A stretch of 64,000 nucleotides of DNA from the IMG/VR virus record IMGVR_UViG_3300043607_000053. One strand, given 5' to 3'. A model generated the notes under the pieces. That model ran no database searches. It saw only the letters and a program-made list of their open reading frames with translations, and was not told the origin of the DNA. Origin of the DNA: a virus. Both the position numbers and the translations under genes were made by a program. This document shows, in pieces, positions 57-53,338 of the stretch. Numbering within the stretch: the stretch's first letter is position 1; each line of letters opens with the position of its first letter.

Positions 57-515
57 ATGCAATTTTTCTATGCTGCCGGAGATCCTGAATCTTCTGATCC
101 CTGGGCATCTATCACAAAGGCGTATGCGCAAAATAACCCGGGTCAAGCCATAGGCGCCGGCAGCGGTCCTGTGGCTAATACCACAACACCTACCACAACG
201 ACACAAAAAAGTGCACTGGGAAGCCTTTTATCCGATAAGAATACCCTCAGCTCGATCCTGAATACGGGACTTAGCACGCTTTCTACCAGCCTCACCAATA
301 AAAGCAATCAGAAATTGGCCAAAACTGCACTTGCTATTGAAACAGAAAAAACAAAGCAGGCGCAGGCTGCTGTGGCCGGTGGTGGCGCGGCACCAGGCAC
401 CCGCGCTCCGATAAGCATGGGGCTGAAAATCGGCCTGGCCGTAGGCGGGGCTGTGCTGTTAACTTTTGTGATCGTGATGCTCGTTAAACCAAAAGCAAAA
501 CCAAAAGCAGCATGA
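57..515 (+). CDS. Putative virion membrane protein, C-terminal TM helix plus Lys-rich tail
   Basis: T/S-rich linker, C-terminal LKIGLAVGGAVLLTFVIVMLV-KPKAKPK. Confidence 0.75.
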   Translation: MQFFYAAGDPESSDPWASITKAYAQNNPGQAIGAGSGPVANTTTPTTTTQKSALGSLLSDKNTLSSILNTGLSTLSTSLTNKSNQKLAKTALAIETEKTKQAQAAVAGGGAAPGTRAPISMGLKIGLAVGGAVLLTFVIVMLVKPKAKPKAA

Positions 516-826
516 AAAAAGCATTGATCATAACAGGCGCTCTTGCCATTGCTGGGACCGGAATATATATGTGGATTAAACAACCCGTTGTTGTTATCAA
601 TTTTAATAGCAAGACCGGTACAGGCGATGTAAGAATCGGTAATAAGACCGCTTCTTTTTCAGCAACGCAAGGTGTTATGATCGGTACCTGGAATGGGTAT
701 AAAATTTATGTGAAGGGTGGTACCGGTGAGTATGCACTTACCAGGTATGGGAAAAATATTGATTCAGCTACATCGATAACGCCCTATATGGGAGGCAGCT
801 CTTACTTAACGATAAATCATTTGTGA
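512..826 (+). CDS. Small membrane-anchored protein, N-terminal TM plus beta-rich domain
   Basis: MKKALIITGALAIAGTGIYMWIK; ATGA overlap with the previous gene. Confidence 0.75.
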   Translation: MKKALIITGALAIAGTGIYMWIKQPVVVINFNSKTGTGDVRIGNKTASFSATQGVMIGTWNGYKIYVKGGTGEYALTRYGKNIDSATSITPYMGGSSYLTINHL

Positions 827-828
827 TC

Positions 829-1056
829 ATGGCAGCAAGTATTGACGCTTTACTGGAAAAAGCTGACAACATAAAAAAGGATGATGGAAAAAATGATGGG
901 AAAAATAAAACCCGAAGCGCCTTCGCCGGCATGATCGTCGGCGGAGTAGTGGGAGTGATGATTGGTTATACAAAAAAATGGAATCTGTTTTATTCTCTAC
1001 TCGGGGGCGCTATCCTGGGAAGCGGAGTAACCTACATATTCACACCGGAAAGTTGA
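829..1056 (+). CDS. Small membrane protein with two GxxxG helices
   Basis: FAGMIVGGVVGVMIGY and LLGGAILGSGVTYIF. Confidence 0.7.
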   Translation: MAASIDALLEKADNIKKDDGKNDGKNKTRSAFAGMIVGGVVGVMIGYTKKWNLFYSLLGGAILGSGVTYIFTPES

Positions 1057-1080
1057 TTATTAAAATTTAAAATAACAATT

Positions 1081-1161
1081 ATGAAAAAAGCATGGATCTG
1101 GGTTGGTGTTGCAGGAGTGGCCGGGTTTCTTATCGGCAAATACGCCTTCCCTAAAAAGTAA
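1081..1161 (+). CDS. 26-aa membrane peptide MKKAWIWVGVAGVAGFLIGKYAFPKK (below ORF-track cutoff)
   Basis: Read directly; same TM+KK design as neighbours; A-rich leader; followed by a terminator. Confidence 0.65.
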   Translation: MKKAWIWVGVAGVAGFLIGKYAFPKK

Positions 1162-1184
1162 TAAATGTGCTGTTTTAATGAACG

Positions 1185-1212
1185 GGCGGTGTACACCGCA
1201 TCGCCTTTTTTT
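1185..1212 (+). terminator. Intrinsic terminator
   Basis: GGCGGTG/CATCGCC stem followed by T7. Confidence 0.6.
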
Positions 1213-1225
1213 ATTTTAAAATACA

Positions 1226-1552
1226 ATGAGCACAATAGCAAAAACAAGTAATGCTGCTTGGAAAGAATACAAGGCAGGAGGCGGGACCATCGTAAAATTT
1301 ACCGATTGGCTGCACCGTGAAAAGGAAAAAATGTTTTCAGCAAACGGAGAAGATGATAGCCTTTTGCTCGTTAATCGCAGCCTGAATGATTCAGTACAGG
1401 GAGCGATTAAAGACACATTGAAAACGGGTGGCTTAAAAGAAAAAACGAGCGGTAAAACGCTTTTTGGTATCAATACCAAATGGCTGATAGGGTCTGCCAT
1501 TGTACTTACCGGTGGAATTATTTATTTGATTGTGAAGAGGAACAAGAATTAA
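1226..1552 (+). CDS. Putative virion membrane protein, C-terminal TM
   Basis: WLIGSAIVLTGGIIYLIV-KRNKN. Confidence 0.75.
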   Translation: MSTIAKTSNAAWKEYKAGGGTIVKFTDWLHREKEKMFSANGEDDSLLLVNRSLNDSVQGAIKDTLKTGGLKEKTSGKTLFGINTKWLIGSAIVLTGGIIYLIVKRNKN

Positions 1553-1581
1553 AAACATTGTTCACTATTAAAACTAAAGCC

Positions 1582-1812
1582 ATGAAGACTGTATGGATTG
1601 TTCTTGGTTCTATGGCGGGAGCTGCAGCGGGATCCTACCTGTTTATGACGTACAAGGGGAAGAAAAAATGTAATTGCAGTGGTTCTACCGCTACTACTAC
1701 ACCTGCTACGCCACCTGCATCTATCACGCCGGCACCGCCGCCAGTTTCGCAACCAATACCTGCAACAGCAGCCGTCGCGATGGGCATGGATGGATGGAAG
1801 AGTTATTTCTAA
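1582..1812 (+). CDS. Membrane-anchored Pro/Thr/Ala-rich protein
   Basis: ATG 1582 (MKTVWIVLG...) preferred over the track start at 1480. Confidence 0.65.
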   Translation: MKTVWIVLGSMAGAAAGSYLFMTYKGKKKCNCSGSTATTTPATPPASITPAPPPVSQPIPATAAVAMGMDGWKSYF

Positions 1813-1824
1813 ATGTGAGAGATT

Positions 1825-2652
1825 ATGAATTTCCGTGTTTATACGGGCAGAGAAGAGCAGATTTTGAAAATAGGTGTCCGGACATTGACAGGTAAACCTG
1901 AAAAGATAAGATTGGTAGTTAGCGATGCCGAGCAAAATAATACCGTCTTTACCAGCAGGTATAATGTCTTCAACGGCGACCGGTTTTTCTATGTCCGTAT
2001 GCCACTGGCTCCGAAGATCGCGCTTGTCCAGGTATATAATGAGCAGATAGGCAACCGCCCTCAAAAGGATGAAAAAACTTTTGAGATGATCGATGAAAAC
2101 AATAAGCCCGATAAAGTAAATAACGGGATTTATAAAATGCCACTGGAGAAGAAAATGTCAGTGGTAGATATGGGAAACCCGGAAGTAAAAAGTTTTATCA
2201 CCTATGCGCAAAAATTTTGTTATAACGCCGGCATTCTTGATACCGGTAAATATCAAAGTGCGGATGGGCGTATTACTTTTCTGTATTCGCCAACCATTTT
2301 TAACAAGAAAGACGGCAAGGAAAGCAGCACGCCGGCACGGATAGCAGAAACATCGAAGATCATTGAAGTTTCGCAGAAAATATTTATTCCATTCACTGTG
2401 CCAATGCGCTTTGCAATTCTTTGCCATGAGTTTGCTCACTGTTATTTAAACCTGAATAAGGTGAGTGAGATAGAAGCTGATCTGCAGGGATTATTAATCT
2501 ATCTGGGCCTGGGCTATCCCCGGTTTGAAGCATACCAGGCATTTCTGGAGACTTTTATCGGCACGCCGTCAGAGCTGAATAAGAAACGCTACAATATCGT
2601 CAATCGTTTTATAACCGATTTTGAAAACAATAAATTCCTGATGTATGAGTAA
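1825..2652 (+). CDS. Zincin-like metallopeptidase (candidate maturation protease)
   Basis: ILCHEFAHCYL (HExxH) followed by EIEAD. Confidence 0.65.
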   Translation: MNFRVYTGREEQILKIGVRTLTGKPEKIRLVVSDAEQNNTVFTSRYNVFNGDRFFYVRMPLAPKIALVQVYNEQIGNRPQKDEKTFEMIDENNKPDKVNNGIYKMPLEKKMSVVDMGNPEVKSFITYAQKFCYNAGILDTGKYQSADGRITFLYSPTIFNKKDGKESSTPARIAETSKIIEVSQKIFIPFTVPMRFAILCHEFAHCYLNLNKVSEIEADLQGLLIYLGLGYPRFEAYQAFLETFIGTPSELNKKRYNIVNRFITDFENNKFLMYE

Positions 2653-2911
2653 GACAGGAAAAGGTCTTATAACCGTCGTTTGCATTGCCGTAATTGGCCT
2701 GGCTGTATTTCACCTTACCAACCAGGGCAAAAAGAAGTATGCAAAAGAGATTATAAAACTCAATGGTACCTTCGGGTCGTATGCATGGCTTATGTCCACG
2801 GAAGAAGGGTATTTAAAAGCATGGGCGAATGCGCTTGCAAAAGGCAAGGCGTCTTTTTCTTTTAATAATGAGAATTATAATACATCGGGGGGTAAAAAAA
2901 TAGTTATATGA
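2645..2911 (+). CDS. Small membrane-anchored protein
   Basis: N-terminal LITVVCIAVIGLAVFHL. Confidence 0.7.
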   Translation: MSKTGKGLITVVCIAVIGLAVFHLTNQGKKKYAKEIIKLNGTFGSYAWLMSTEEGYLKAWANALAKGKASFSFNNENYNTSGGKKIVI

Positions 2912-3411
2912 AAGTATTTGATCGGGCTTATCAGTTTTACGAAGGATTGCCTACCTGGGGCAAAGCAGTAGTAGTTATCGGGGGCGCCGGCTTAACCTGG
3001 TTTGGAATATTAAATCCTGTAAGAAAACTGATTATATCCAAACTGGACCAGGCTAAAATGGCAAAGGAAGGACAAAAAGCCGGTGATGAATTGAGCAAGC
3101 TGAAGAAACAGGGTGTAAATCCAACGATATCACCCGCGCAGGCTGAATCGTTTTCCAATTCACTCGTTTCTGCATTTTCAGGTTGCGGAACAGATGAAGA
3201 CGCAATCTATAACATAATGAAACAATTGAAAAACAATGCAGACGTATATCTGCTTATTAGCACTTTTGGGATAAGGAAGTATGACAGTTGTATGTGGGGA
3301 ACGACAGAGAAATCATTATCCGGCGCTATAAGTGATGAATTGGATTGGCTTGAAAAAATGGCTGTCAACAAGACTCTTGAAGCAAACAAAGTTTCGTTTC
3401 AATTCACTTAA
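2908..3411 (+). CDS. Membrane-anchored annexin-repeat-like protein
   Basis: AFSGCGTDEDAIYNIM matches the annexin GxGTDE motif; SLSGAISDEL resembles the annexin repeat end; N-terminal TM. Confidence 0.65.
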   Translation: MKVFDRAYQFYEGLPTWGKAVVVIGGAGLTWFGILNPVRKLIISKLDQAKMAKEGQKAGDELSKLKKQGVNPTISPAQAESFSNSLVSAFSGCGTDEDAIYNIMKQLKNNADVYLLISTFGIRKYDSCMWGTTEKSLSGAISDELDWLEKMAVNKTLEANKVSFQFT

Positions 3412-3420
3412 AAATTTGTT

Positions 3421-4107
3421 ATGCGAAAACCGCTTTATGTAACAGATAGAAAATTCACCGGTGATACCGGTTGTGCATTGGATTACCAGATTGGTTTTGA
3501 AGATGAATGCGGAGGCTATTGCAATTTTTTGGGCATTGGCAACAAAAAGGAGAAGGAAAGACGCGCCGATGTGTTGAATGAAGTGCGTGGTCGTTATCCT
3601 TCGCCAAAAAATTGCGCAGATGCAGAAGCGGGACTACCCAAATTGCGTGCTGATTTGGCCGATGCGCAACGCCAGCTCGATGCTGATCCAAAATCGTCTG
3701 TAAAACCTCGTTATATCGAAGCATATACCACTGTCCTGGGAGAATTTACTACTTATTACAACAATAATTGTCTTACCACTGCAGCAGATGTGCCAGCCAC
3801 TTCTACGCCTGTAATGCCGGGATCAATAAATACTGACCCTATCCTGCAAACAGCAACTCCGAGTGGTAGCACGGCAACATCGTTGGGCAATAATGCCACT
3901 ACTGCCGGCGCCACTGCAGGCGCTAGTGCAACCTCTTCTCCTGCAACCAGCGGAACAACGCCAGCAGGAAGCACGGCCCCTGCAATAAAGCAGAATGTAT
4001 TATCAAAAGTCCCAAAATGGGCTTGGTGGGTGGCCGGTGGATTGGTAGTGGTAACGATCGTGGCAGTTGTTATTAAGCATAAAAATGTTAAACCCGTTAA
4101 GGCATAA
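3421..4107 (+). CDS. Putative virion membrane protein, T/A-rich stalk, C-terminal TM
   Basis: WAWWVAGGLVVVTIVAVVI-KHK; paralogous core with the next gene. Confidence 0.75.
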   Translation: MRKPLYVTDRKFTGDTGCALDYQIGFEDECGGYCNFLGIGNKKEKERRADVLNEVRGRYPSPKNCADAEAGLPKLRADLADAQRQLDADPKSSVKPRYIEAYTTVLGEFTTYYNNNCLTTAADVPATSTPVMPGSINTDPILQTATPSGSTATSLGNNATTAGATAGASATSSPATSGTTPAGSTAPAIKQNVLSKVPKWAWWVAGGLVVVTIVAVVIKHKNVKPVKA

Positions 4108-4108
4108 T

Positions 4109-4609
4109 ATGGCCGTTGAATTATTTGACGATATCGACACTAATGTTCTGGCTTCATGTAAATCATTTCGTGGCCGGGATGAATATTTTAATGCCAATGC
4201 TGCAAAATTAAATCGCCAGGCTGAAACGGCGGCTGATGTTGTCCTTCAGTTTCCCTATCCTCCAAAGGATTGTGAACAGGCTACTACTATCATTCAGAAT
4301 ATTGAGGATCAGATAAAATCTCTCAATGAAAAACTGGCCAGTGGTGGTAATAAGGTTGATAAAAGATACCTGGACGCATATATCGGAATCCGCAACAATT
4401 TTAAAGCCTGGTTAAACGCAAAGCAATGTGTAGCTACTGCCTTGAAACAGGAGGATGATGCATTCAGCGAGCAATTGCAGACCGCATTGAATCAGGAACA
4501 AACTTCACAGGATAGCAGTAGTAGTAAAAATAATTGGATCATTTTCACTGCACTCGGTTTCCTTGTACTGGGTGCAGTAGCCATTATATTAAAACGACCT
4601 AAAAAGTGA
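4109..4609 (+). CDS. Putative virion membrane protein, C-terminal TM (paralog of 3421-4107)
   Basis: ATG 4109; PPKDC...KRYLDAY motif; WIIFTALGFLVLGAVAIIL-KRPKK. Confidence 0.75.
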   Translation: MAVELFDDIDTNVLASCKSFRGRDEYFNANAAKLNRQAETAADVVLQFPYPPKDCEQATTIIQNIEDQIKSLNEKLASGGNKVDKRYLDAYIGIRNNFKAWLNAKQCVATALKQEDDAFSEQLQTALNQEQTSQDSSSSKNNWIIFTALGFLVLGAVAIILKRPKK

Positions 4610-5133
4610 ATTGGCAAAAGGCAATAGGAATATCATTGATTGTTGGGTTAGCCGGTGGGCTTTACGCACTATACCGGTATGGAAAGAAGGAATCAAAAAA
4701 ACTGCAAGACTACCAGGTAGATCTTACCGGTATAAAGTTTACCAGCTTTTCCGAAGACCTGGTGACAATGGATGCTATGTTCCGCATTACTAATAAGTCA
4801 GCGATCGAGGCAACAATCGAAAAATTGTATGCTGACACTTATTTGAATGGTGCATACGTGGGAAATGTAGTCAATAGCGGTGCATGGCCAATTCCCGCCA
4901 AAGGAACATCGGATGATATCAAATTGAGTTTTACGTTTTCGAGCAAACAAATATTAAAAAATATCGTAGGCGCTCTTTTTAGTTTGATCACGACAAAAGA
5001 CGTGCCCTACCGGATAGCAGGATCGGCTACGGTAAAAAGTTTGTTCGTTTCATTCAGCGTTCCTTTTGATTATAGCGGATTTTTGAAGAGTGATATGCTG
5101 GGGACCGCAACACCGGTACCGGCGACAAAATAA
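4606..5133 (+). CDS. LEA type 2 (WHy) domain protein with N-terminal TM
   Basis: FRITNKSAIEATIEKLYADTYLNGAYVGNV...IPAKGTS...Y-I-G pattern. Confidence 0.7.
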   Translation: MNWQKAIGISLIVGLAGGLYALYRYGKKESKKLQDYQVDLTGIKFTSFSEDLVTMDAMFRITNKSAIEATIEKLYADTYLNGAYVGNVVNSGAWPIPAKGTSDDIKLSFTFSSKQILKNIVGALFSLITTKDVPYRIAGSATVKSLFVSFSVPFDYSGFLKSDMLGTATPVPATK

Positions 5134-5149
5134 TATCACACCGAAAATT

Positions 5150-5539
5150 ATGGATAGCAAAGAAATGATGGAAAAAATTGAAAAAAAGATCAGGCAAGGG
5201 ATAGCGAAATTCCAAAACGTGTACCAGTTGCCGGCAGACCAGGTGCAAATTGTATTTATGCTCGATGAAGAAGAGGAAGTGCAGTTTATGACTTGTGTCA
5301 ATAATCAATTAAGGCATAAGGTCAAGCTCTCGGATCTCATAGGAAAAAACATGACCAACTTTCTTGTGCGATCGCATTTGACAAAGGTTATTAAAAAGTT
5401 TGCCATAGAGCAAAACAGCAAGGACCGTAGCACTAATATTATCGCAGGTGTAAATGCTAAAGATGAGCTGTACATGCATTTGAGAAGGAACCATATCCTG
5501 ATCAGAAAAATTGAGGATCCTGACGAATTAAAAATTTGA
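5150..5539 (+). CDS. Hypothetical protein
   Basis: ATG 5150, packed in the operon. Confidence 0.6.
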   Translation: MDSKEMMEKIEKKIRQGIAKFQNVYQLPADQVQIVFMLDEEEEVQFMTCVNNQLRHKVKLSDLIGKNMTNFLVRSHLTKVIKKFAIEQNSKDRSTNIIAGVNAKDELYMHLRRNHILIRKIEDPDELKI

Positions 5540-5543
5540 GTAT

Positions 5544-5837
5544 ATGGGTATGCAGATTTGTACGCAGGTGGTGAGTGCGGGAAACAGTTTTGTGATAAAT
5601 GCGTCAATGGGCGTACTATCTATAAGTTATCAAATGAGCAATGGGACCGGTGATGCCGGTACTATTATCGGAAACTTTAATGGAACCAGCTCTACCGGAA
5701 GCCATTTAACAAACCAGGCGATAACCATTCCTGCAGGCGGTGGTAACAATTTCAGCAGTCCGTCGCCAGATCGCCCCATCGATGGTATTACACTACACTG
5801 TACGCAGGGTAGCTTAAATATCATATTGGGGTATTAA
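5544..5837 (+). CDS. Small beta-rich structural protein candidate
   Basis: Alternating hydrophobic strands, Gly/Ser/Thr-rich. Confidence 0.6.
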   Translation: MGMQICTQVVSAGNSFVINASMGVLSISYQMSNGTGDAGTIIGNFNGTSSTGSHLTNQAITIPAGGGNNFSSPSPDRPIDGITLHCTQGSLNIILGY

Positions 5838-5847
5838 ACTAATTGTC

Positions 5848-6957
5848 ATGTTTAGTATTGCAAAAAAATATTATGATCTTGGTTTTTTGGGAGGCGCTGG
5901 TATGCTTTCTTTCCTGCCCTTACCGGGTATAGGATCCGGCGGTGGTAGTGGCCCCCCTTTTGCGGCTGATTCGGCTGACAACGGGTTGTCAGTTGATCCC
6001 ATTACAGGGCATATAGTCCTGGGCAATGACCTGACTGATACGGCAGCTCTTCTATTGTCCGATCGGGAAATAGCGATGGGTGGAAAATCTATCCAACTTA
6101 CCGATCCGGACCTATTGCTTTTTATAAACAGCAACTCAATTCAGCTTACAGATAATTCCGGTGGAAATAATTTTATTGGATTATTTGTCAGTGCTACTGA
6201 TGCTCACATGGAACTGATAGGCACCGTAGGCGGTGGAAGTGCCCCGGCTATTAAAATATCCGAAGTTGGCTTCTCCCATTCCGAGATAAGAGTAATTGGA
6301 AGTGCTTTTGAAGTAGCGGGTACAAGCGGAACCCGGCTTATGCTTTCGGCTGATTCTGCTAATCAAATCTATCAATTGGGAGATCTTTCGGTAGCAGCTA
6401 ATGGTACATTGATCTCCGTAGAGCCAAGTAATCAAAGAGTAGTGGTTGGCCTTGCATCCGGAAACCGCGTTGCAGATTTTGGAACAACCAATTTTAATGT
6501 ACAACTAGGAGATATTGATAGCGTTGGTAACGATACTATACTAAATGTATTTGATAACCTGCAGAGAATAAATGCTAATGTAGGCGGCATAAATAATGTG
6601 TTGTTTTTAGATGGAACTTCTAAAAATTATTCTTTGGGTGATCCGGGAAGCGATTTTTTGTTGATTGATGGACTTGGATTTCAGACAAAGATTGTGACTA
6701 ATGGGACTACTACTTTGTTCCTGGATCTAATCAGCGGACAATACTCTATCGGTGATTTTGATGGCAGTGGCAATGGAACGCTTTTGACATTAGATGACGG
6801 GACTTCTATTGCGCGTATAGCTGCAACTAATGGCCTGAACCTGGCAGGATCGGCTTATTCGATCAACGGAACGCCGGGTGACAGCGGATCATTTACTGCT
6901 CAATCAGGGGAAACAGTAACCGTTACGGGAGGAATTATAACTGCTATTACGCCATAA
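5848..6957 (+). CDS. Spike/fibre-like protein with ~40-aa beta repeats
   Basis: Repeats YQLGDLSVAANGTLI, VQLGDIDSVGNDTIL, YSLGDPGS, YSIGDFDGSGNGTLL. Confidence 0.6.
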   Translation: MFSIAKKYYDLGFLGGAGMLSFLPLPGIGSGGGSGPPFAADSADNGLSVDPITGHIVLGNDLTDTAALLLSDREIAMGGKSIQLTDPDLLLFINSNSIQLTDNSGGNNFIGLFVSATDAHMELIGTVGGGSAPAIKISEVGFSHSEIRVIGSAFEVAGTSGTRLMLSADSANQIYQLGDLSVAANGTLISVEPSNQRVVVGLASGNRVADFGTTNFNVQLGDIDSVGNDTILNVFDNLQRINANVGGINNVLFLDGTSKNYSLGDPGSDFLLIDGLGFQTKIVTNGTTTLFLDLISGQYSIGDFDGSGNGTLLTLDDGTSIARIAATNGLNLAGSAYSINGTPGDSGSFTAQSGETVTVTGGIITAITP

Positions 6958-6983
6958 AATTTAATCATTATAAAAAAATACAG

Positions 6984-7181
6984 ATGAAAACGGAAATTTT
7001 GAATGCAACCTGCCTGCAGGCTACCGAAAACAAGAACAATTGCACAATCAGATTTGCTTTGGAAGGAGAAAAGCCTACTGATATTATTGCAAGTGCCATA
7101 TTCGCATATAAAGAACCGGATGAGGCAAAAAAGTTCTCTACCAAAAAAAAATACAATATCACGATAACGGAGGTTGAATAA
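6984..7181 (+). CDS. Hypothetical protein
   Basis: 65 aa, A-rich leader. Confidence 0.6.
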   Translation: MKTEILNATCLQATENKNNCTIRFALEGEKPTDIIASAIFAYKEPDEAKKFSTKKKYNITITEVE

Positions 7182-7198
7182 TTAATCAAACCGGGACT

Positions 7199-8146
7199 AT
7201 GAAAAAGATATGTCTGTTGCTTTTGTTGCCAATTTGTTGTTGGTCGCAAAGGCAAAATCTATTACTGGAAGCCACGTTCGACGGTACCAATCCCTTTGCA
7301 GGTTTTACACTTGCTAATGAGCAGTATTGCTGCAGCTATTCCATTAACCAGGTAGCCAACCCGCAAGGACCCGGCCAGGTCATAAAATATGATTTGCGCA
7401 GTACAGATCCTATTGTGTCCAGCTCGCTACGCGCAGAAATACAATTACAGGGTACAGATGCGCCGGAAAGCTCTGAAAGATGGTACGGCCTGCAATATTA
7501 CCTGCAGAACTATGGGGCCGACCCCGGACCGGAAAGTATTATGCAATGGCATGATATAGATGGTAGCTGCCCGCCCTTATCTCTGCAGGTGGCGGGTGGA
7601 CGTCTTCGGATTACCCAGTGTATCGATAACGGCAACACACATAATGATCTTGGCCCTGTTGTTTCAAATACCTGGTTTTCTATTGTCGCACGTATAAAAT
7701 GGGCAAGTACCAATACCGGTATTATACAGGTATGGCGCGATGGTCAGCGGTTAGTGAATAAAAGTAATATCCGGACAAACAGTACCGGGGGAAGTTATTT
7801 TAAGCTGGGTATCAACAAATGGTCATGGGCGCCTCCCCTTGTGGGAAGCTCCAACCAGACTGAACGCATTTTTTACATTGATAATTTCCGCATGGGAAAT
7901 CAGAATGCTTTTTATAATGATGTAGCGCCTGTTCCCCTGGTGGTAACACCAGTTATATGGGGATATTTCCGCTATAATGATAGTGTAAAAGCACTGGAAT
8001 GGGCTACGGAGACGGAACAAAACAATGATCACTTTGAAGTACAGGAAAGCGATGATGGGGCTAACTGGACAACTATTGGCAGTGTTGCAAGCAAAGCGAT
8101 CGATGGTAATAGTAATTCGACAATCACATATTCATACCAATTATGA
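7199..8146 (+). CDS. Secreted polysaccharide lyase-like (concanavalin-fold) protein with a half Bacteroidota Ig-like domain
   Basis: Signal peptide; RAE..., ERWYG, IMQWH, GIIQVWRDG, YFKLGINKW, YIDNFR; C-terminal LEWATETEQNNDHFEVQESDDG. Confidence 0.7.
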   Translation: MKKICLLLLLPICCWSQRQNLLLEATFDGTNPFAGFTLANEQYCCSYSINQVANPQGPGQVIKYDLRSTDPIVSSSLRAEIQLQGTDAPESSERWYGLQYYLQNYGADPGPESIMQWHDIDGSCPPLSLQVAGGRLRITQCIDNGNTHNDLGPVVSNTWFSIVARIKWASTNTGIIQVWRDGQRLVNKSNIRTNSTGGSYFKLGINKWSWAPPLVGSSNQTERIFYIDNFRMGNQNAFYNDVAPVPLVVTPVIWGYFRYNDSVKALEWATETEQNNDHFEVQESDDGANWTTIGSVASKAIDGNSNSTITYSYQL

Positions 8147-8346
8147 AAACGGTAAAAAAGATAATGTTTCTGTCAATGATCTTCTGCACCTGGTCGGTTT
8201 TATTATCGGGCAATTGCAGGCCCAATAGTACAACCACTGTTCCGGATCCTGTGATACCAAAACCAGCAGCGAAGCATTACCGGATCATGCAGGTTGACAA
8301 AGATGGCAACGTAAAATACAGCAACGTAATAATTGTTAAACAGTAA
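8143..8346 (+). CDS. Small exported/membrane peptide carrying the second half of the Ig-like domain
   Basis: Hydrophobic N-terminus; C-terminal HYRIMQVDKDGNVKYSNVIIVK. Confidence 0.6.
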   Translation: MKTVKKIMFLSMIFCTWSVLLSGNCRPNSTTTVPDPVIPKPAAKHYRIMQVDKDGNVKYSNVIIVKQ

Positions 8347-8364
8347 AAAAAAGGAGTTTTTTTT

Positions 8365-8691
8365 ATGAAAAGGTATTCATCATTGATAGCTGCCGCGATC
8401 GGAACTGTTATGTTAGTATTACAACAAGCCATGACAGAAAAGAGCTGGGATTTGAAAATTGTTGGATTCAGTGCGCTTATTGCAGTTATAGGCGCGATAT
8501 CTGTTCAATTGAAAGGAAAGGGAATTTCTTTGGGTGGTATTATAGGCACCGTTGGATATAATTTTTATACCATTTATTCTACCGGACATTTTACTGTTAA
8601 AGAATTTATTATTACGTCTGCATTTGCTGTTCTTGCTTTAATCCTGCCCAGTGTAAAACCGGTGCAGGATCCTCCAAAACCGAACCAATAG
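8365..8691 (+). CDS. Multi-pass membrane protein, holin candidate
   Basis: About four short TM segments in 108 aa, upstream of PG-acting genes. Confidence 0.5.
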   Translation: MKRYSSLIAAAIGTVMLVLQQAMTEKSWDLKIVGFSALIAVIGAISVQLKGKGISLGGIIGTVGYNFYTIYSTGHFTVKEFIITSAFAVLALILPSVKPVQDPPKPNQ

Positions 8692-8739
8692 AAGTAAAAG
8701 ATGTATTTTAGCAGTGGTTATTCGTAGTGAATTAAGGAA

Positions 8740-8967
8740 ATGTGGAATAAGAAGCTGTGGACCGACAACCGGCAGAAATTTCTGGAAACAGAGTATGAGA
8801 GCGCCTACAAACGCGCATTCGCTTCTTTCCAGGAATTTGAAAACAAGATGGACCCTTATATAAGGCAATGTCTTCGCTGCAATGGTTATTACTGGCTCGG
8901 CAACAGCAAACCGTGTGATTGTGAATTTGACCTTAATACGAATAACCATGCAAAAAAAGCACACTAA
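8740..8967 (+). CDS. Hypothetical protein with CxxC...CxC
   Basis: CLRC...CDC. Confidence 0.5.
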   Translation: MWNKKLWTDNRQKFLETEYESAYKRAFASFQEFENKMDPYIRQCLRCNGYYWLGNSKPCDCEFDLNTNNHAKKAH

Positions 8968-9607
8968 AAAAATAGGCGTAGTCCTATTGGTAATACTTGG
9001 GGGGGGCGGTCTTTATTTTCTGTACCGGTGGGTGCAGTCTTCCCGGATGAATGCCATGTCAAAGGCCCCGGATTCTATTAAACAAAGTCAGGCGTCCCAA
9101 CCCGTAAAAGCATCTACGCTATCGATCTTCCCTTTAAAATTGGGATCTCCTAAAAACGACCTGGTAAAGCAATTACAGGGCTATCTTGGCGTCGATGCCG
9201 ACGGTATATGGGGGCCAAAAACACAAGCAGCATTTACGGTTGCCACCGGTAAAACGCAAGTAACCAGCCAGGCTGATTTTGATGCGACGATCGCTAAACT
9301 TCAAAATAGCAAAGCCATTGCCAGCAATAGTGTGCGCGGAGATGATTTAATAAAGAAATGGACCACAAACACCTCGCTTCAACTGGCCACTCTTGATAAG
9401 GTTACTTTATTGGGTGTTGTCAAAGATGCTTATGGAGCGCTCAATCCCAATAATAAAAATACAGTGGTGGGCGCCAATTATAAATTGAACAGAACCGACT
9501 ATACACCGCTTGGAATAACATCGCAGGGATTCCTTCTTTTACAAATCAATACGGGGGCATTTGCTGGCTTATACCGTGCCGACGTAAATAAATTCACTGT
9601 GGCATGA
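8948..9607 (+). CDS. Membrane-anchored peptidoglycan-binding domain protein
   Basis: ATG 8948; TM; PLKLGS...VKQLQGYLGVDADGIWGPKTQAA (PG_binding_1). Confidence 0.75.
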   Translation: MQKKHTKKIGVVLLVILGGGGLYFLYRWVQSSRMNAMSKAPDSIKQSQASQPVKASTLSIFPLKLGSPKNDLVKQLQGYLGVDADGIWGPKTQAAFTVATGKTQVTSQADFDATIAKLQNSKAIASNSVRGDDLIKKWTTNTSLQLATLDKVTLLGVVKDAYGALNPNNKNTVVGANYKLNRTDYTPLGITSQGFLLLQINTGAFAGLYRADVNKFTVA

Positions 9608-10098
9608 CACCAAAAATAAAGATAGTGCTGATCACTGCCGGCGTGCTCCTGGTGAGCACGACTGCGGTATTTGCTTTCCGGAAAAAAAAGCCGGTAGCTA
9701 AAGCAATTAAAAAAGTTGGCAGCATTATATGGCCGGAAGGTGCTGATTCCAGTGAACCTACTACCGAAACAGGCGACACAACGATAAAGCTGGGAAGTAC
9801 AGGCAGGTATGTTGAGCAATTGCAAAATGCATTGAATGATATCCATAAGGCGGCACTATACATGAATAAGAATTGCAATATGGATAAGTGGGCCACTTAT
9901 CCGGGGCCTGCCGTAAGCAGTCAGGGAGATATCCTGAATGTAAGCGGAACTTTTGATGCCAACACGCAGGCGGCTACCAAATTTTATCTGTACCGGACCG
10001 AAGTTGACCTGGACTACCTGGCTATGATCAAGAAAAAGATTGATAAGCAGAAGGCCAACAATGACGTATGTGTATATCCACTGGGAGAAATATTATAA
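9604..10098 (+). CDS. Membrane-anchored peptidoglycan-binding domain protein
   Basis: IKLGSTGRYVEQLQNALN...VSGTFDANTQAA. Confidence 0.7.
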   Translation: MTPKIKIVLITAGVLLVSTTAVFAFRKKKPVAKAIKKVGSIIWPEGADSSEPTTETGDTTIKLGSTGRYVEQLQNALNDIHKAALYMNKNCNMDKWATYPGPAVSSQGDILNVSGTFDANTQAATKFYLYRTEVDLDYLAMIKKKIDKQKANNDVCVYPLGEIL

Positions 10099-10202
10099 AA
10101 ACGGCCCCATGATGCGCTCAGGGACCGTTTACTGTCACAAATCCAATATGACAGAAAAACTAATCGAATAGCACAAGATAGAAATTAAAAATTCAAAAAC
10201 AA

Positions 10203-10598
10203 ATGGCATCCACTCCATCTTCAGCTCAACCTGCAGCAGCCGGATCCTCCGGCGCCGGTGGCCTTGCCAGTGGTCTGAATGTGGCAGCGGGTATTGTTGA
10301 CGTAGCTGCTACCATTGCCAATACAGTAGCTTCTATCAGCGATGCAAATAAACGCAGGTTGATTGAGGCTAATCTTAATGTACTTAGCCAAAAAGAACAA
10401 CAAGCCCTTGCACAGCAGATATCACGTTCAAATAATAAAAACGACCAGGCTACTATTTTAATAAATACAGTGCTTGCTGCCAGGAATGCAGCCGCCGATC
10501 GGCAGCAGCGATCGCAAACGATACAATGGATTTTGATAGGCGCTGCAGGTGTAGTCACATTGGGAATTTTGGCGTGGTATTTAAAAGCTGATGCATGA
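10203..10598 (+). CDS. Putative virion membrane protein, C-terminal TM
   Basis: WILIGAAGVVTLGILAWYLK. Confidence 0.75.
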   Translation: MASTPSSAQPAAAGSSGAGGLASGLNVAAGIVDVAATIANTVASISDANKRRLIEANLNVLSQKEQQALAQQISRSNNKNDQATILINTVLAARNAAADRQQRSQTIQWILIGAAGVVTLGILAWYLKADA

Positions 10599-11179
10599 AA
10601 CGTCCGGCGATCATTATAGGTGGATCACTTGCTCTTGCAGGTGGTCTTTTGCTGATAAGCTGGAGACAAAAAGCCGGCAATCTGGCTGCACAGTTCCTTG
10701 ATATAGCTGAAATCGGAAATAACCAGGATTTCAGCAACCAGGTGTTTAAGAAAATGTTGCAGGACGTAGGATGGCAAGGCGGTGAAGCGTGGTGTATGTA
10801 TTTCGCAAAAAGTATTTATCTGAAGGCGTTTCCCAAAAAGGCGGCACAGATAAATAAAGTTCTTACCGGTAGTACACAACAGAGCTGGGCCAATGCCCTG
10901 GCAAATCCGGATCTGTTTAAGATTGTTACCAGTGGTAGTCCACGTAAGGGTGATATCATAATATGGCAGTCTATAAATAATAGTACGCAGGGACATGCCG
11001 GCATTGCCTTAAAAAAACAAAGGGGGCATGAATGGTACACCGTTGAAGGGAATAGTGGATTCGGTGGTACAAAGGCTGGCCAGGGAGTTGTTAGGCAGAC
11101 GCGCAACCTGGTACCTGGTACAGTGATGGGAGATTTAAAATTGTTGGGATTCCTGCGATTGAAAACAAATATTTTTTAG
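10595..11179 (+). CDS. CHAP-domain peptidoglycan hydrolase with N-terminal anchor
   Basis: AWCMYF, PRKGDIIIW, GHAGI, TVEGNS. Confidence 0.85.
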   Translation: MKRPAIIIGGSLALAGGLLLISWRQKAGNLAAQFLDIAEIGNNQDFSNQVFKKMLQDVGWQGGEAWCMYFAKSIYLKAFPKKAAQINKVLTGSTQQSWANALANPDLFKIVTSGSPRKGDIIIWQSINNSTQGHAGIALKKQRGHEWYTVEGNSGFGGTKAGQGVVRQTRNLVPGTVMGDLKLLGFLRLKTNIF

Positions 11180-11180
11180 C

Positions 11181-11510
11181 ATGGCACTTACAGCACAGGA
11201 AGCATATAATCAGTTAAGCGCAGAGATAAAAAAACTCGGTGGATGGAAACCGGGGAATGTACTTGACGGAATAATTGGTGTTGGTAAAGCGAACACTGAT
11301 CAGCTCCAGCAAATGCTTAACCAGGTGCTACAAAAAAACGGGATCCTGTCTGCAGGTGATGAGGCTAATATAAAAGGCTTACTGGACCAGCAGGAAAAGG
11401 AAAAGAAAAAAAGACAAGCCATACGAGCGAAAAACTTTTTGTTATTGGGCGGTACCATGGTTGCGATCGGCGGCATCATCTACCTGGTAGCGAAGAAAAT
11501 GAAAACGTGA
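11181..11510 (+). CDS. Putative virion membrane protein, C-terminal TM
   Basis: FLLLGGTMVAIGGIIYLVA-KKMK. Confidence 0.75.
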   Translation: MALTAQEAYNQLSAEIKKLGGWKPGNVLDGIIGVGKANTDQLQQMLNQVLQKNGILSAGDEANIKGLLDQQEKEKKKRQAIRAKNFLLLGGTMVAIGGIIYLVAKKMKT

Positions 11511-11513
11511 GTT

Positions 11514-11822
11514 ATGAAAATTTCAAAAGAGCTGATAGAGTTTACTATCATTTTTGGGGGAGCTGGTGTTTTGTACCTGCTTACCAGGCCAGCCACGTCG
11601 CGTAAGCCAAAAACAACTGAACCGGATCAGCAAACGCAAATGAAGAATGCGAACACCGTTAAAGATGCCTATTTGCTTGCCCTTAAATCCGGTGAATCTG
11701 CAGCACGCCTGGAAGAGCTGAACCGGTTAACGGAAAGCAAATATGGAATGCGTGTTTTTAAAAAGAGTGATGGAAGGTATTATGTGATGGACACAAATGG
11801 GAATATTATTAAGCTGAAGTAA
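11514..11822 (+). CDS. Membrane-anchored protein
   Basis: FTIIFGGAGVLYLL. Confidence 0.7.
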   Translation: MKISKELIEFTIIFGGAGVLYLLTRPATSRKPKTTEPDQQTQMKNANTVKDAYLLALKSGESAARLEELNRLTESKYGMRVFKKSDGRYYVMDTNGNIIKLK

Positions 11823-11823
11823 T

Positions 11824-12366
11824 ATGCTTAGTCAAAGTGAAATCGATAAATATAATACTGTGATCATTAGGACCGCAATGAAGCAGGGCCTACCCGAAAG
11901 AATTGCTAAGTATGTTGCTTCACAGGCTGAATATGAAACTGGAAACTATACATCAAATAATTTCCTGAAAAATAATAATGCCTTTGGCATGGCTGTTCCT
12001 AAAACTCGGAAAAGCCGATATATACTTGGTGCGGGATCTGTCAATGCGCCGGCTGCAGAAGGCGCCTTCGCTTATGCCAGGTATGCCAGTATTGAGGATA
12101 GCGTGAAGGACCTCATTGATTGGTTCAATTATAACAACGTGAATTGGAATGCTATTACCTCTCCTGATAGTTATGATGCATTTTTAGTCAGCAAGGGATA
12201 TCATACGTCTTCGCAAAGCAGTTATACAGCCGGCCTGCGTGCTTATTATGAAAAGCTGAAAGATTTCGCTGTTCGTAATCCGAAGACAAGTATTTTAATC
12301 GGTATTGCCGGCGCTGCTATGGTGGGCACCGCTATTTATTTATTTGTAAGGAAAAAATCTGCCTGA
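11824..12366 (+). CDS. Glucosaminidase/FlgJ-type muramidase with C-terminal TM anchor
   Basis: SQAEYETG...NNAFGM...YARYASIEDSVKD; C-terminal ILIGIAGAAMVGTAIYLFV-RKK. Confidence 0.8.
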   Translation: MLSQSEIDKYNTVIIRTAMKQGLPERIAKYVASQAEYETGNYTSNNFLKNNNAFGMAVPKTRKSRYILGAGSVNAPAAEGAFAYARYASIEDSVKDLIDWFNYNNVNWNAITSPDSYDAFLVSKGYHTSSQSSYTAGLRAYYEKLKDFAVRNPKTSILIGIAGAAMVGTAIYLFVRKKSA

Positions 12367-12372: not shown

Positions 12373-12870
12373 ATGCCCACAATCTCACCTACAATAACAG
12401 TCAACACCACCCCGGGCATAACCATTACTATTTCGGTACCGGGCCTTACTTACCAGGCATTGATCAATATGCTTGGAGTAATGGTGTTTGATGTACAAAC
12501 ACTGTATTATTATTCCATGCTGCAGGCACAGTTTTTTAGTGCTATAAAATACAGTCAATATGATCCTAACGGCAACCAGGCTGCTACACAGGTGGTAACT
12601 CCCATCGATCCGCAGCAATATCAAAACAGCGAGCTGGTAGAGCTGGCCGGCGAGTACATATTTATCGATGGTAATTCAGCATTGACATTTAATTTTTTAC
12701 CATTCAATATGATTCAATTTATTTTTTACGCAAAGCGCTTACAAAACGAAGATGCTATTGACGCTGCTGGCTATATTAACAATTTTAAAGAGGTTGAACG
12801 TGACATGGGCATCGAAGGTTTTTTTGAAGATCCAGAGGATGCTCCGAAAATTGAATTTATTCCGGGATAA
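12373..12870 (+). CDS. Probable jelly-roll capsid-like (minor capsid/penton-type) protein
   Basis: All-beta pattern TYQAL...YDPNG...IDPQQYQ...IDGNSALTFNFLP...FIFY, recalled as jelly-roll-like; not verified by profile search. Confidence 0.45.
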   Translation: MPTISPTITVNTTPGITITISVPGLTYQALINMLGVMVFDVQTLYYYSMLQAQFFSAIKYSQYDPNGNQAATQVVTPIDPQQYQNSELVELAGEYIFIDGNSALTFNFLPFNMIQFIFYAKRLQNEDAIDAAGYINNFKEVERDMGIEGFFEDPEDAPKIEFIPG

Positions 12871-12879
12871 AAAGAAGTA

Positions 12880-14124
12880 ATGAAACAGTCCCTTATTCTG
12901 AATTTAATAAATAACACGTCCGGCACTATTCCATTGACGATACTTAGCTCATTTGAATGGGCTAACAGTGTGATCAATGCGAGGACCAGCTATACGTGGA
13001 ATATCACAGGGCTTTCTTTCAGCCCGGGTACGTTTTCTATCCAGGCAAAAGCGGATAATAGCGGATCCTTTCAAACTTATACCGGATTTGCCACTGATAC
13101 GCAATCATTGATAGCAGCTATTAATAATTTAGGCATCGGCACATTTTGGACAATCACATCGGGATCCACAATTTATTTAATCACTTATAATGACACTTTT
13201 GTTTATGCTGACCTGGTGATAGGTTTTGCATCCGTAGGATTCGTATGGACCATCCGATCCACGCCGCAGGATAGTACCTGGCGAAATGTGACGTTTGGAA
13301 ATGGGCTTTTTGTAGCCGTTTCCGTGGATGGTGCATCCCGGGTAATGACTTCTCCGGATGGTATCAACTGGACACTGCGCAGTGCACCGGTGTTCCAGTG
13401 GTTTGGCGTAACATTTGGAAATGGGCTTTTTGTAGCCGTAGGACCAGGCACGCCGGGTAGCCAGGTGATGACCTCGCCGGATGGCATCACCTGGACGCTA
13501 AGATCAACCCCGGGCCCTTCCCTTCAATGGTTCAATGTGATCTATGGAAACGGGCTTTTTGTAGCCGTTGCAAATACTGGAGTAAATGACAGGGTGATGA
13601 CTTCCCCGGATGGAATAAACTGGACCAGCAGCTTTACCCCGGTTGATAATGATTGGATCGATGTGGCGTATGGAAATGGCCTTTTTGCAGCCGTTTCCAA
13701 TAATGGAGCGGGAAATAGGGTTATGACCTCACCAGACGGCATTACGTGGACTATTCGGGCCTCGGCAGCCGATAATGCCTGGGTGAGCATAACCTACGGA
13801 AACAGCCTCTTTGTGGCCGTGGCGCTGTCAGGAGTGGGGAATAGGGTTATGACCTCACCAGACGGCATTACGTGGACGATCCGGGCCTCCGCTGCCGATA
13901 ATAACTGGTTCAAAGTAACCTACGGAAATGGCCTCTTTGTGGCTGTGGCTTCCACTGGGGTAGGAAACCGGGTAATGACGTCTGCGGATGGGATCACCTG
14001 GACCCTCCAGGTATCAGCAGCCGATAACGATTGGGATAGCATTATATATGCAAGTAATATATTCGTGGCCGTGGCAACTTCGGGTGTGGGGAACCGGGTA
14101 ATGACTTCCGGTACTATTCAATAA
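12880..14124 (+). CDS. Spike/receptor-binding candidate: N-terminal virion-attachment-like domain plus 7-bladed Asp-box beta-propeller
   Basis: Seven repeats W..VT[FY]GNGLFVAV...VMTSPDGI[TN]WT; no signal peptide. Confidence 0.75.
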   Translation: MKQSLILNLINNTSGTIPLTILSSFEWANSVINARTSYTWNITGLSFSPGTFSIQAKADNSGSFQTYTGFATDTQSLIAAINNLGIGTFWTITSGSTIYLITYNDTFVYADLVIGFASVGFVWTIRSTPQDSTWRNVTFGNGLFVAVSVDGASRVMTSPDGINWTLRSAPVFQWFGVTFGNGLFVAVGPGTPGSQVMTSPDGITWTLRSTPGPSLQWFNVIYGNGLFVAVANTGVNDRVMTSPDGINWTSSFTPVDNDWIDVAYGNGLFAAVSNNGAGNRVMTSPDGITWTIRASAADNAWVSITYGNSLFVAVALSGVGNRVMTSPDGITWTIRASAADNNWFKVTYGNGLFVAVASTGVGNRVMTSADGITWTLQVSAADNDWDSIIYASNIFVAVATSGVGNRVMTSGTIQ

Positions 14125-36988: not shown

Positions 36989-37744
36989 ATGAAACAGCAA
37001 CATTTCACGATTATCATTACTGCGTATAATGCGCAGGAATGGATAGCGCAGTGCATATCTTCTGCAGTCATGCAGGATTATGACAATTTCGATATCATTT
37101 GCGTGGATGCGGCATCCTCCGATGATACGTATTATACCATGATGGATATGCAGGCAAGGAATAACATAAAAGGAAATTTTACCATTTCCCGGAACTTTCC
37201 CCGGCGCTGTTACCAGGTTGAGAATATAATGAAAGCTGTAAAAAGGGCTGAACCAGGATCTATTTGTGTAAGCCTTGATGGGAATGATCACCTGGCGGGA
37301 TTCGATGTACTTCATACCCTGAATGCGGTATATAATCCGGAAGTGTGGATTACATACGGGAGGTACAGGCATCAGAATTATTCGCATATTTCCGCAGATG
37401 CACACCACCGGTACCCGGATGAAGTAATTGCCGGCAATACATACAGGCAATATCCTAAGCAATTGTACACGCACCTTCGCACCTGGCGACGTGAACTATT
37501 TTTAAAAATCAGGGAAGACGACCTCAAGATCGATGGCAGATTTGCGTGCAATGCCGGCGATTGTTTTTTTGGTTATCCTCTTGTTGAAATGGCTGGCCAC
37601 CGGCAGGCATTCATCAATAAAATTCTGTACGTGTATAATACCAATAATCCATTATCTGACGGAATTGTACAGCCCGAAGAACAGGTAAGAATGGCTGATT
37701 ATGCAAAAAGTTTAACACCCTATGAACCCCTGGCTAACTTATGA
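36989..37744 (+). CDS. GT2-family glycosyltransferase
   Basis: IIITAYNAQEWIAQCISS...VDAASSDDT. Confidence 0.85.
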   Translation: MKQQHFTIIITAYNAQEWIAQCISSAVMQDYDNFDIICVDAASSDDTYYTMMDMQARNNIKGNFTISRNFPRRCYQVENIMKAVKRAEPGSICVSLDGNDHLAGFDVLHTLNAVYNPEVWITYGRYRHQNYSHISADAHHRYPDEVIAGNTYRQYPKQLYTHLRTWRRELFLKIREDDLKIDGRFACNAGDCFFGYPLVEMAGHRQAFINKILYVYNTNNPLSDGIVQPEEQVRMADYAKSLTPYEPLANL

Positions 37745-37787
37745 ATGTATTGATAAATAATTATAAAGCAATCCTAACCCATACAAG

Positions 37788-45185: not shown

Positions 45186-45467
45186 ATGACACAAGTAGAA
45201 TGTGAAAAAATACCCAAAGAAGCGAAGGCTCTTAAAGCAATTGTTATGGGAGGATACGCAATCTTTTGCCAGGGATTTCTAAAAGCCGCCAACGTCACAA
45301 GTGAACTGCACAGTGTCGATAAGAAAAAAGGAATACCTGCCTATGGATTTATTATGTACAAAAAGGAAAAGGTATATTATTGTCGGTATGGTTTCATCAA
45401 CAGTCCTGATATATACGATAACGAACAATTAAAAGATAAACATGGCAAAAATCAAGTTGGGGTATAA
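45186..45467 (+). CDS. Hypothetical protein
   Basis: 93 aa. Confidence 0.55.
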   Translation: MTQVECEKIPKEAKALKAIVMGGYAIFCQGFLKAANVTSELHSVDKKKGIPAYGFIMYKKEKVYYCRYGFINSPDIYDNEQLKDKHGKNQVGV

Positions 45468-52574: not shown

Positions 52575-52606
52575 TACCGGTAATTACAGAATCAAGTATA
52601 TACGCC

Positions 52607-52846
52607 ATGAACGAGGATCCGCAGAAAGATATTAATTTTAGAGATATTCTATTACTGGCTACAAGCCATGAATTTTCTCATGGGTTTAAGGAAAGGGAGA
52701 ATAAAACTTACAGTGAACAGGAAATTGAAGAGATCCTGGGTGCATATAACGAAAAATGGAATGTTTCTAATATGATCAGGGAAATCAGGACGAAGGCCCG
52801 GGATTTATCGAGTAATTTCTCATTGTACTTAATGCATCGAACTTAA
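52607..52846 (+). CDS. Hypothetical protein
   Basis: 79 aa. Confidence 0.45.
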   Translation: MNEDPQKDINFRDILLLATSHEFSHGFKERENKTYSEQEIEEILGAYNEKWNVSNMIREIRTKARDLSSNFSLYLMHRT

Positions 52847-52946
52847 ACCCGGATTATCTGCCGGACACTATGAAGGCGCAAAAATGATGAAATGATCCAT
52901 TCCTCAGCTTTTCGGTGGCGTTAACGCTGCGGCAAAATCAACGAGA

Positions 52947-53246
52947 ATGAGAATACAGGTGTATTGGATGAATAAATTGCTATATGAAGCCGATGCAGAA
53001 AAAGATTTTCATTTTCCTGTTCCTTTTTTTTCGTCAATAGAACGTAAGGGTATCCCCTTAAAAGAACGGGCGTTGCAATTACAAAAAATCTCCGATTATT
53101 TTGTGGAAGAAGTCAAGCGCCGACTGCGTTTGATGAATGTTTTTGAGGCAGAAGTGTACATTTATTTTGAAAGCAGAAGCAACAACTGGACCTGTAAAGA
53201 GATACTGGAATGGGACGGTGATTTTCCGGGGAAAAGTAAAAAATGA
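52947..53246 (+). CDS. Hypothetical protein
   Basis: 99 aa. Confidence 0.55.
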   Translation: MRIQVYWMNKLLYEADAEKDFHFPVPFFSSIERKGIPLKERALQLQKISDYFVEEVKRRLRLMNVFEAEVYIYFESRSNNWTCKEILEWDGDFPGKSKK

Positions 53247-53292
53247 TACGGCAATTACCGTATTTTACAATAAGAAAAGTGTAAGATCGAAT

Positions 53293-53338
53293 AGCCTCCT
53301 GCCAGCTTAGAGGAATACTAAGCGAGGGAGGCTTTTTT
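53293..53338 (+). terminator. Intrinsic terminator (extended hairpin)
   Basis: AGCCTCC/GGAGGCT outer stem, GCTTAG/CTAAGC inner stem, T6. Confidence 0.65.

Follow-up and report, generated by a model that had tools for sequence, protein, structure and literature searches.

In PRD1, the penton protein P31 builds the vertex jointly with the N-terminal part of the spike protein P5, and among the PRD1-type viruses base and spike are found either in one chain or in two, a split which has been discussed as a route to spike swapping (PMC9719478). The major capsid protein of phiCjT23 is P5, with 239 residues (M1-V239), whose first jelly roll, V1 (M1-T126), is upright, and the penton-base domain of this phage was reported as non-canonical (PMC9719478). 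The Sphaerolipoviridae are tailless viruses with an inner membrane, a linear dsDNA genome with inverted terminal repeats, and spike complexes at the vertices (PMC12643093). The protein family presented here comes in both arrangements, i.e. in one chain, as in PM2 P1 and the phiCjT23 spike, or in two, as in FLiP and adenovirus; five-fold symmetry and insertion into the capsid would be hypothetical for the present family. For PM2, P1 is said to be a one-chain spike with a penton-base domain.

The gene studied here (P0001) belongs to an uncultured virus-like element from soil and is located in a 64-kb window, which is the whole stretch of DNA analysed and part of an 80.4-kb contig, between genes for a peptidoglycan hydrolase and a spike. 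The features of this locus are as follows:

11824-12366: peptidoglycan hydrolase gene upstream of P0001 (Pfam Glucosaminidase, E 4e-8), product with a C-terminal TM helix and basic tail
12373..12870, plus strand: P0001 gene, ATG start and TAA stop, 165 aa, stand-alone member of an undescribed domain family of ~155 aa
12373..12450, plus strand: N-terminal arm of P0001, aa 1-26 (MPTISPTITVNTTPG...), conserved in the family, extended and without DSSP strands in the model
12451..12744, plus strand: predicted beta-sandwich core, aa 27-124, pLDDT mostly >90, with nearly invariant Y27, Q53, G67, P80, Q82 and G100
12745..12831, plus strand: two predicted helices near the C-terminus (aa 125-131, aa 137-145) and, closing the domain, the conserved motif NNFK...FF
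12832..12867, plus strand: acidic tail, aa 154-165, low model confidence
12880..14124, plus strand: spike gene, 414 aa, N-domain and repeat/propeller head, starting 9 nt past the P0001 stop codon
12883..13266, plus strand: N-domain of the spike (its residues 2-129), the module fused to the P0001-family domain in relatives

The first-pass annotation had described P0001 as a soluble, beta-rich ORF of 165 aa with an acidic tail, positioned between a muramidase and a propeller gene, and this description was borne out: the ORF is as described, a hydropathy scan found no TM segment, the predicted model contains seven DSSP strands, the last 16 residues (FFEDPEDAPKIEFIPG) include five acidic and one basic residue, and the gene is flanked by the Glucosaminidase match upstream and the repeat/propeller protein downstream. 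The motifs which it had listed are all found in P0001 (YQAL at 27-30, DPNG at 64-67, IDPQQYQ at 78-84, IDG at 98-100, LP at 109-110 and FY at 118-119), and in the family alignment they fall on the nearly invariant positions Y27, G67, P80, Q82 and G100. At the position of the acidic tail, relatives contain either a linker and the spike N-domain, or a linker and a TM helix. A signal peptide is absent from both P0001 and the spike, which argues for folding in the cytoplasm and uptake during assembly inside the cell. The scan for promoters and terminators around the P0001 gene gave no signals above shuffled expectation. The spike ORF has the same reading frame as P0001, from which it is separated by one TAA and three codons (window 12868-12882; 234-248 in the soil contig L001, see below). 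Readthrough of the P0001 stop codon into the spike was considered and rejected, as the related genome G001 has two in-frame stops (L003 15171-15183), making conserved readthrough unlikely.

An exhaustive phmmer search of 1.84 billion cluster representatives gave 189 representatives of the P0001 family at E<=1e-3 and 73 at E<=1e-10, and with 189 representatives matching at the former threshold the signal is more than chance. Family members are mostly ~155 aa, and those looked up all come from metagenome assemblies (JGI, ENA, Logan), on contigs of up to 123 kb. Close homologues are few, with 80% identity for P0002 (on a 79-kb contig) and 64% identity for P0003. In the latter protein (177 aa) the conserved IEFIP motif is followed by an additional, Cys-rich tail (CECDCQLDC), which may be a metal-binding or disulfide tag.

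The family is new to Pfam, PHROGs and NCBIfam, as P0001 has no match in any of these three. Pfam searches with 150 family members gave only C-terminal PKD, LRR or Ig matches in single members and no CBM family, and a sequence search of the PDB with the family profile gave only noise at E~1. None of the isolate phages in 50,697 phage records carries the family, and tblastn searches of these records with P0001, its G001 homologue and the conserved zincin of the operon were without match. This was also true for IMG/VR scans with P0001 and P0158, and no description of the family or its lineage was found in the literature. In a comparison with the ESM Atlas the model of P0001 itself was poor (pLDDT 0.36), and its neighbours there are therefore meaningless.

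The link between P0001 and the spike, for which the evidence is strongest, is apparent from fusions, membrane-anchored forms and gene order. The spike N-domain (aa 2-129) resembles aa 192-323 of the relative P0010 (37% identity, E 2e-20), of which aa 1-155 form the P0001 domain. A search of 153 family sequences with two spike N-domains, one from the window and one from G001, gave nine representatives (9/153) which contain both modules in one chain, in 8/9 cases in the order family domain, spike N-domain and variable end, with the latter consisting of nothing more, of a PKD domain and leucine-rich repeats, or of other beta-rich parts. In the ninth fusion (P0130, from a 123-kb contig) the spike N-domain is followed by the family domain, and then by a TM helix and Lys-rich tail. 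A C-terminal TM helix with K-rich tail is present in at least 33 of the 153 sequences when using a strict hydropathy cut-off, and in ~45 when judged by eye, and stand-alone members make up ~93 of the 153. All arrangements are compatible with a single radial order (membrane anchor, family domain, spike N-domain, head), in which the break between the two polypeptides of the window falls after the family domain and before the spike N-domain.

With regard to gene order, a P0001-family gene is found directly before the spike at all three loci with gene context (the window, L001 and G001), two of which are close relatives. L001 is a 15-kb soil contig among the matches listed, where the P0001 homologue has 97% identity over the last 77 residues and is followed by the same spike gene 9 nt downstream. 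The family domain is conserved and the parts following it vary (propeller; PKD plus LRR; other heads), which is the pattern expected of an attachment module, and the fusions show the combination of a conserved proximal module with variable distal modules by which spikes with an N-terminal attachment domain are recognised.

AlphaFold predicted a beta-sandwich for P0001 when provided with a 150-sequence alignment (A2; pLDDT 87.6, pTM 0.70), whereas with only three sequences the model was unusable (pLDDT 34). The model consists of the N-terminal arm (1-26), a short helix, seven DSSP strands (37-48, 58-63, 69-74, 86-90, 96-98, 102-105 and 114-124), two helices and a low-confidence tail. Foldseek searches with this model found nothing below E 0.03 in the PDB and nothing below E 5e-3 in the viral BFVD, with low TM scores, and the best Z-score given by an exhaustive structural aligner was 5.2, which is under the background of 7-8 stated for that tool. 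Jelly-roll-type sandwiches dominate this weak list, with C2 domains equally high (Z 4-5). The most consistent match is the nucleophosmin/nucleoplasmin core (4n8m, 8as5, 1xb9, 1xe0, 2p1b, 2vtx and 1nlq; Z 4.1-4.9, 75-86 residues aligned of a ~100-residue target, identity ~9%), a pentameric eight-stranded jelly roll; the likeness is one of fold class only, as nucleophosmins are eukaryotic histone chaperones and nothing suggests common descent with P0001. Further weak matches were to carbohydrate-binding modules and lectins (AlgX CBM with Z 5.0-5.1, CBM62 with Z 4.4-4.6, CBM32 and F-type lectins; overall Z 3.9-5.1), to tail-complex proteins (7y22_Y, 8zkm_E and 9nwi_Y, Z 4.0-4.4), to picornavirus and satellite-virus coat proteins, and to the second barrel (V2) of PRD1 P3 (Z 3.9). 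The V1 jelly roll of P5 from phiCjT23, a phage with a host from the Bacteroidota, superposes on the P0001 model with Z 4.7 and an rmsd of 3.0 A (model residues 38-123, residues 18-124 of 7zzz chain J; 74 residues aligned with 15% identity), but this Z-score is tied with many unrelated sandwiches, P5 has two jelly rolls where P0001 has one sandwich, and phiCjT23 is a 9-kb-class ssDNA phage. Penton proteins (PRD1 P31, PM2 P1 and the like) were absent from the P0001 fold matches.

The topology of P0001 was assessed from these alignments to known folds, together with mean-field covariation calculated from the same family alignment (150 effective sequences, noisy). The top covarying pairs were 62-99, 61-72/73, 46-114, 43-113 and 48-85, which, with strand labels running from D to I, would represent the E-H, E-F, D-I and D-G pairings of a jelly roll. 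The invariant residues Q53 and Q82 covary or contact each other. P0001 is likely to be a jelly-roll-like sandwich without a close structural relative or specific similarity to pentons; such a predicted compact beta-sandwich belongs to a fold class used for capsid and vertex proteins, with generic matches. The idea that P0001 resembles one jelly-roll unit is consistent with the predicted sandwich, the mostly jelly-roll-type matches and the jelly-roll-like covariation, and is weakened by Z-scores which are all <=5.2, the tie with C2 domains and the lack of a specific relative. The AlphaFold monomer and Foldseek comparison proposed along with it thus gave a confident beta-sandwich, but only weak and generic fold matches and no penton protein. 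Eight strands had been taken as the mark of the jelly roll, and the six to seven strands of the confident core neither contradict this outright nor cleanly agree with it.

We compared the window with a relative genome, G001, which is an IMG/VR record of 74,101 bp (GC 30.5%), linear and with a perfect 653-bp inverted terminal repeat (L003 1-653 and the end of L006). The G001 operon is syntenic with that of the window over at least 14 genes, and genes in common include the zincin (50% identity), a LEA_2-like protein, CHAP peptidases and several tail-anchored proteins. The family member in G001 (156 aa, 36% identity to P0001) is encoded directly before a 223-aa protein starting with the spike N-domain. 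Many proteins of the window operon (57-12366, plus strand), including the glucosaminidase-family hydrolase, end in a TM helix and short K/R-rich tail, and these tails resemble those of one third of the P0001 family; in the operon CHAP peptidase the TM helix is N-terminal instead. The zincin (1825-2652, plus strand), with the sequence HEFAH for its HExxH motif, is a soluble protein inside this membrane-protein operon, and is the best-conserved operon protein in the comparison with G001. The following genes, three of G001 and one of the window, are of relevance for the type of particle:

L004:17054-17839 (G001 37051-37839), minus strand: 262-aa paralogue, a further and divergent member of the family whose domain is at residues 107-231
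L004:18208-19053 (G001 38205-39053), minus strand: P-loop ATPase of 282 aa (Walker A ACGKRGVGKS, Walker B LLLVED), whose gene immediately precedes that of the 262-aa paralogue
L005:11989-14457 (G001 51986-54457), minus strand: 823-aa AAA+ (AAA_5/MoxR-like) ATPase, with an intein at ~aa 164-440+ which matches the gp41-1 intein and PI-SceI
Window 45442-47175, plus strand: P0154, 577-aa HerA/FtsK-like ATPase (GVTQLSGKTT (Walker A) ... ILVIPEAW), with weak AAA_10 and phrog_2666 matches only

The 262-aa paralogue consists of an acidic, aromatic N-terminal extension of ~90 aa, the family domain, and a distinct C-terminal end of ~35 aa, and P0109 and P0144 share this architecture, so that there is a separate subfamily. 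A double jelly roll was considered for this paralogue and rejected, since the family HMM finds nothing similar in its N-terminal 110 aa. Of the genes seen, the one for the 282-aa ATPase is the most conserved, with 377 homologues, most with 62-96% identity, on contigs of up to 72 kb. It has no Pfam match, and a profile search gave no relative in the PDB. Its feature neighbours in the Atlas, based on a language model, are viral clusters labelled Zot/DUF87 with taxa that are mostly Uroviricota; these labels are leads only, with Zot/DUF87 pointing to the FtsK/HerA class and Uroviricota the other way. The protein is a candidate packaging or assembly ATPase, and its gene a candidate for a good marker of the lineage.

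At E<=1e-5, PHROGs for capsid, portal, tail or terminase proteins had no match among the 96 ORFs of the window, and the sole borderline PHROG match was that of phrog_2666 to P0154, which has a long helical C-terminal part, is encoded amid glycosyltransferase genes and has no homologue in G001; we do not count P0154 as a packaging enzyme. Searches of G001 with the Pfam models TerL_ATPase, Terminase_6N, Phage_portal and Phage_capsid gave nothing at E<=1, whereas control genomes did match, and the ten largest candidate ORFs of G001 contained no terminase, portal or capsid family when compared with the PHROGs. Matches to 'terminase large subunit' PHROGs were obtained for residues 150-521 of the 823-aa AAA+ protein of G001, and were rejected as spurious because the matched stretch is the intein; the same intein also yields spurious strong PHROG matches to 'DNA primase' and 'DnaC-like loader'. 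Very divergent tailed-phage hallmark proteins in G001 are conceivable. The Pfam model for A32-type ATPases (Pox_A32) had no match in G001, and no protein-primed family B polymerase (PF03175) was detectable in this genome, despite its 653-bp inverted terminal repeats. A jelly-roll major capsid protein was identified neither in the 64-kb window nor among the ten largest candidate ORFs of G001, and SSIP-1, a cultured large tailless phage of Bacteroidota, has no protein similar to the family HMM or to the window or G001 ORFs. Of the first-pass suggestion of a penton or vertex protein next to the spike, the connection to the spike has gained strong support from the N-domain fusions and conserved adjacency; the words 'capsid-related' and 'penton' are used here as hypotheses, because of the weak and tied fold scores, the six to seven strands, the absence of a penton among the fold matches and of a major capsid protein among the proteins identified.

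PRD1-type vertex proteins may serve as the nearest working analogues of P0001. As in PRD1, a small beta-sandwich is encoded together with the spike, the module is found on its own in some proteins and at the N-terminus of a spike in others, and the surrounding structural operon is rich in membrane proteins and includes wall hydrolases. Unlike in PRD1, the genome is ~5x larger, neither a DJR capsid protein nor an A32-type ATPase was recognised in the lineage, and P0001 itself has neither a sequence match nor a P31 fold match. We know of no membrane-anchored versions of the vertex module in PRD1. Similarly, the lineage resembles the Sphaerolipoviridae in the linear G001 genome with inverted terminal repeats, in the operon rich in membrane proteins, and in having single-jelly-roll proteins as candidate shell or vertex parts, whereas the Sphaerolipoviridae have ~30-kb genomes and archaeal hosts, no homology was detected, and the search of G001 revealed no protein-primed polymerase.

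From these comparisons we consider it somewhat probable that P0001 is a virion structural protein which forms the base of the spike. It would be the stand-alone form of a jelly-roll-like sandwich domain of ~155 residues, placed between the body of the particle (membrane and/or shell) and the spike N-domain. Having no signal peptide, P0001 would fold in the cytoplasm and bind the spike N-domain through the surface which is covalently adjacent in the fused relatives, a contact that we infer from fusion and adjacency only. Base and spike would here be two polypeptides which assemble non-covalently, where relatives use one chain or have a C-terminal membrane helix of their own. The other face of P0001, or its conserved termini, would fix the spike to the particle; in the relatives with a TM helix this helix would do the fixing, and here a partner on the inner side would be needed, possibly a tail-anchored protein of the operon or a shell protein. 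Presence in the particle, as well as any oligomeric state and stoichiometry of P0001, are likewise parts of this proposed model.

A more specific version of the spike-base explanation is that of a true penton, in which five copies of P0001 would form a ring of single jelly rolls at each five-fold vertex of an icosahedral, tailless capsid containing an inner membrane, with the spike mounted on top, as with PRD1 P31/P5, PM2 P1 or the FLiP penton, and this we regard as possible, albeit doubtful. The jelly-roll-like sandwich is compatible with such a role, as are the matches to the pentameric nucleophosmin core (Z 4.5-4.9, 80-86 of ~100 residues) and to single jelly rolls of DJR capsid proteins (phiCjT23 P5 V1, Z 4.7; PRD1 P3 V2, Z 3.9), and the covariation supporting pairings of the D-I, E-H, E-F and D-G type; yet the fold lists contain no penton protein, all Z-scores are below background, and C2 domains tie. 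Stand-alone and spike-fused forms coexist, like P31 and the N-terminal part of P5 in PRD1 (PMC9719478), the operon abounds in tail-anchored membrane proteins and in wall hydrolases with a membrane anchor, and G001 is bounded by inverted terminal repeats and lacks TerL, portal and HK97 capsid matches, whereas the searches identified no type of major capsid protein, and the lineage has nothing detectable in common with SSIP-1. The search for packaging genes points in both directions, with a very conserved small Zot/DUF87-like P-loop ATPase of 282 aa adjoining the family paralogue in G001 on the one hand, and on the other the A32-type Pfam model without match in G001, and the profile of this ATPase without PDB match and its Atlas clusters labelled mostly Uroviricota. 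Extended further, and in our opinion unlikely, the family could supply the vertex protein in bacterial viruses of 70-120 kb from a lineage as yet undescribed, which would have linear genomes with long inverted terminal repeats, lack tailed-phage genes, and be tailless with a protein-rich inner membrane. The stand-alone form would then be the penton and the spike-fused form a penton and spike in one chain, the TM forms would hold the vertex on the inner membrane, their Lys-rich tails extending as far as the DNA, and the 262-aa paralogue would be a shell protein based on the same jelly roll.

The combination of a conserved N-terminal docking module and a variable receptor-binding part is also typical of tailed-phage fibres, and P0001 could be an adaptor which docks a receptor-binding protein to the baseplate or tail tip of a very divergent tailed phage, the head and tail genes of which would have diverged beyond recognition. 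A G001 protein of 1262 aa, which matches tail-fibre PHROGs and contains an S74 chaperone domain, is in line with this, together with the mostly Uroviricota labels of the ATPase clusters and the weak tail-complex fold matches (Z 4.0-4.4), but we think it improbable, given that G001 is complete from ITR to ITR without a terminase, portal or HK97 capsid match (Pfam models at E<=1; PHROGs for its ten largest candidate ORFs), that its apparent terminase PHROG matches lie on the intein, and that membrane anchors, present in one third of the family, would be unusual for baseplate adaptors. The many CBMs and lectins among the fold matches, the invariant Q53 and Q82, which might line a binding site, and the many glycosyltransferases encoded by the element raise the question whether P0001 is a carbohydrate-binding accessory of the spike, directed at a host glycan or at glycans of the element itself. 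This is very improbable, as the domain is at the proximal, N-terminal end in 8/9 fusions and not at the distal one, where receptors would be bound, adjoins the membrane anchor in P0130, and has no signal peptide and no identified sugar-binding motif, with Z-scores equal to those of unrelated sandwiches. Least to be expected is an assembly chaperone of the spike which is absent from the final particle: fibre chaperones are often products of small genes adjoining fibre or spike genes, but they are usually encoded downstream, or C-terminally fused and then removed, whereas the P0001 module is upstream or N-terminal and also occurs with a permanent membrane anchor.

Returning to the spike-base explanation, the family likely represents a spike-base module occurring free, fused or membrane-anchored. 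If this is true, the P0001 family marks the vertex or spike-attachment site of widespread uncultured large phage-like elements, in which no capsid, portal or terminase gene is recognisable. P0001 is small, soluble and well modelled, and has a defined partner in the spike N-domain, and the pair can be expressed, pulled down and imaged, which would make it a practical route to the type of particle, and to whether tailless, membrane-containing bacterial viruses reach 70-120 kb. The family would also be a clean natural example of a module which is split, fused or membrane-anchored, and as such bears on the swapping of spikes among viruses.
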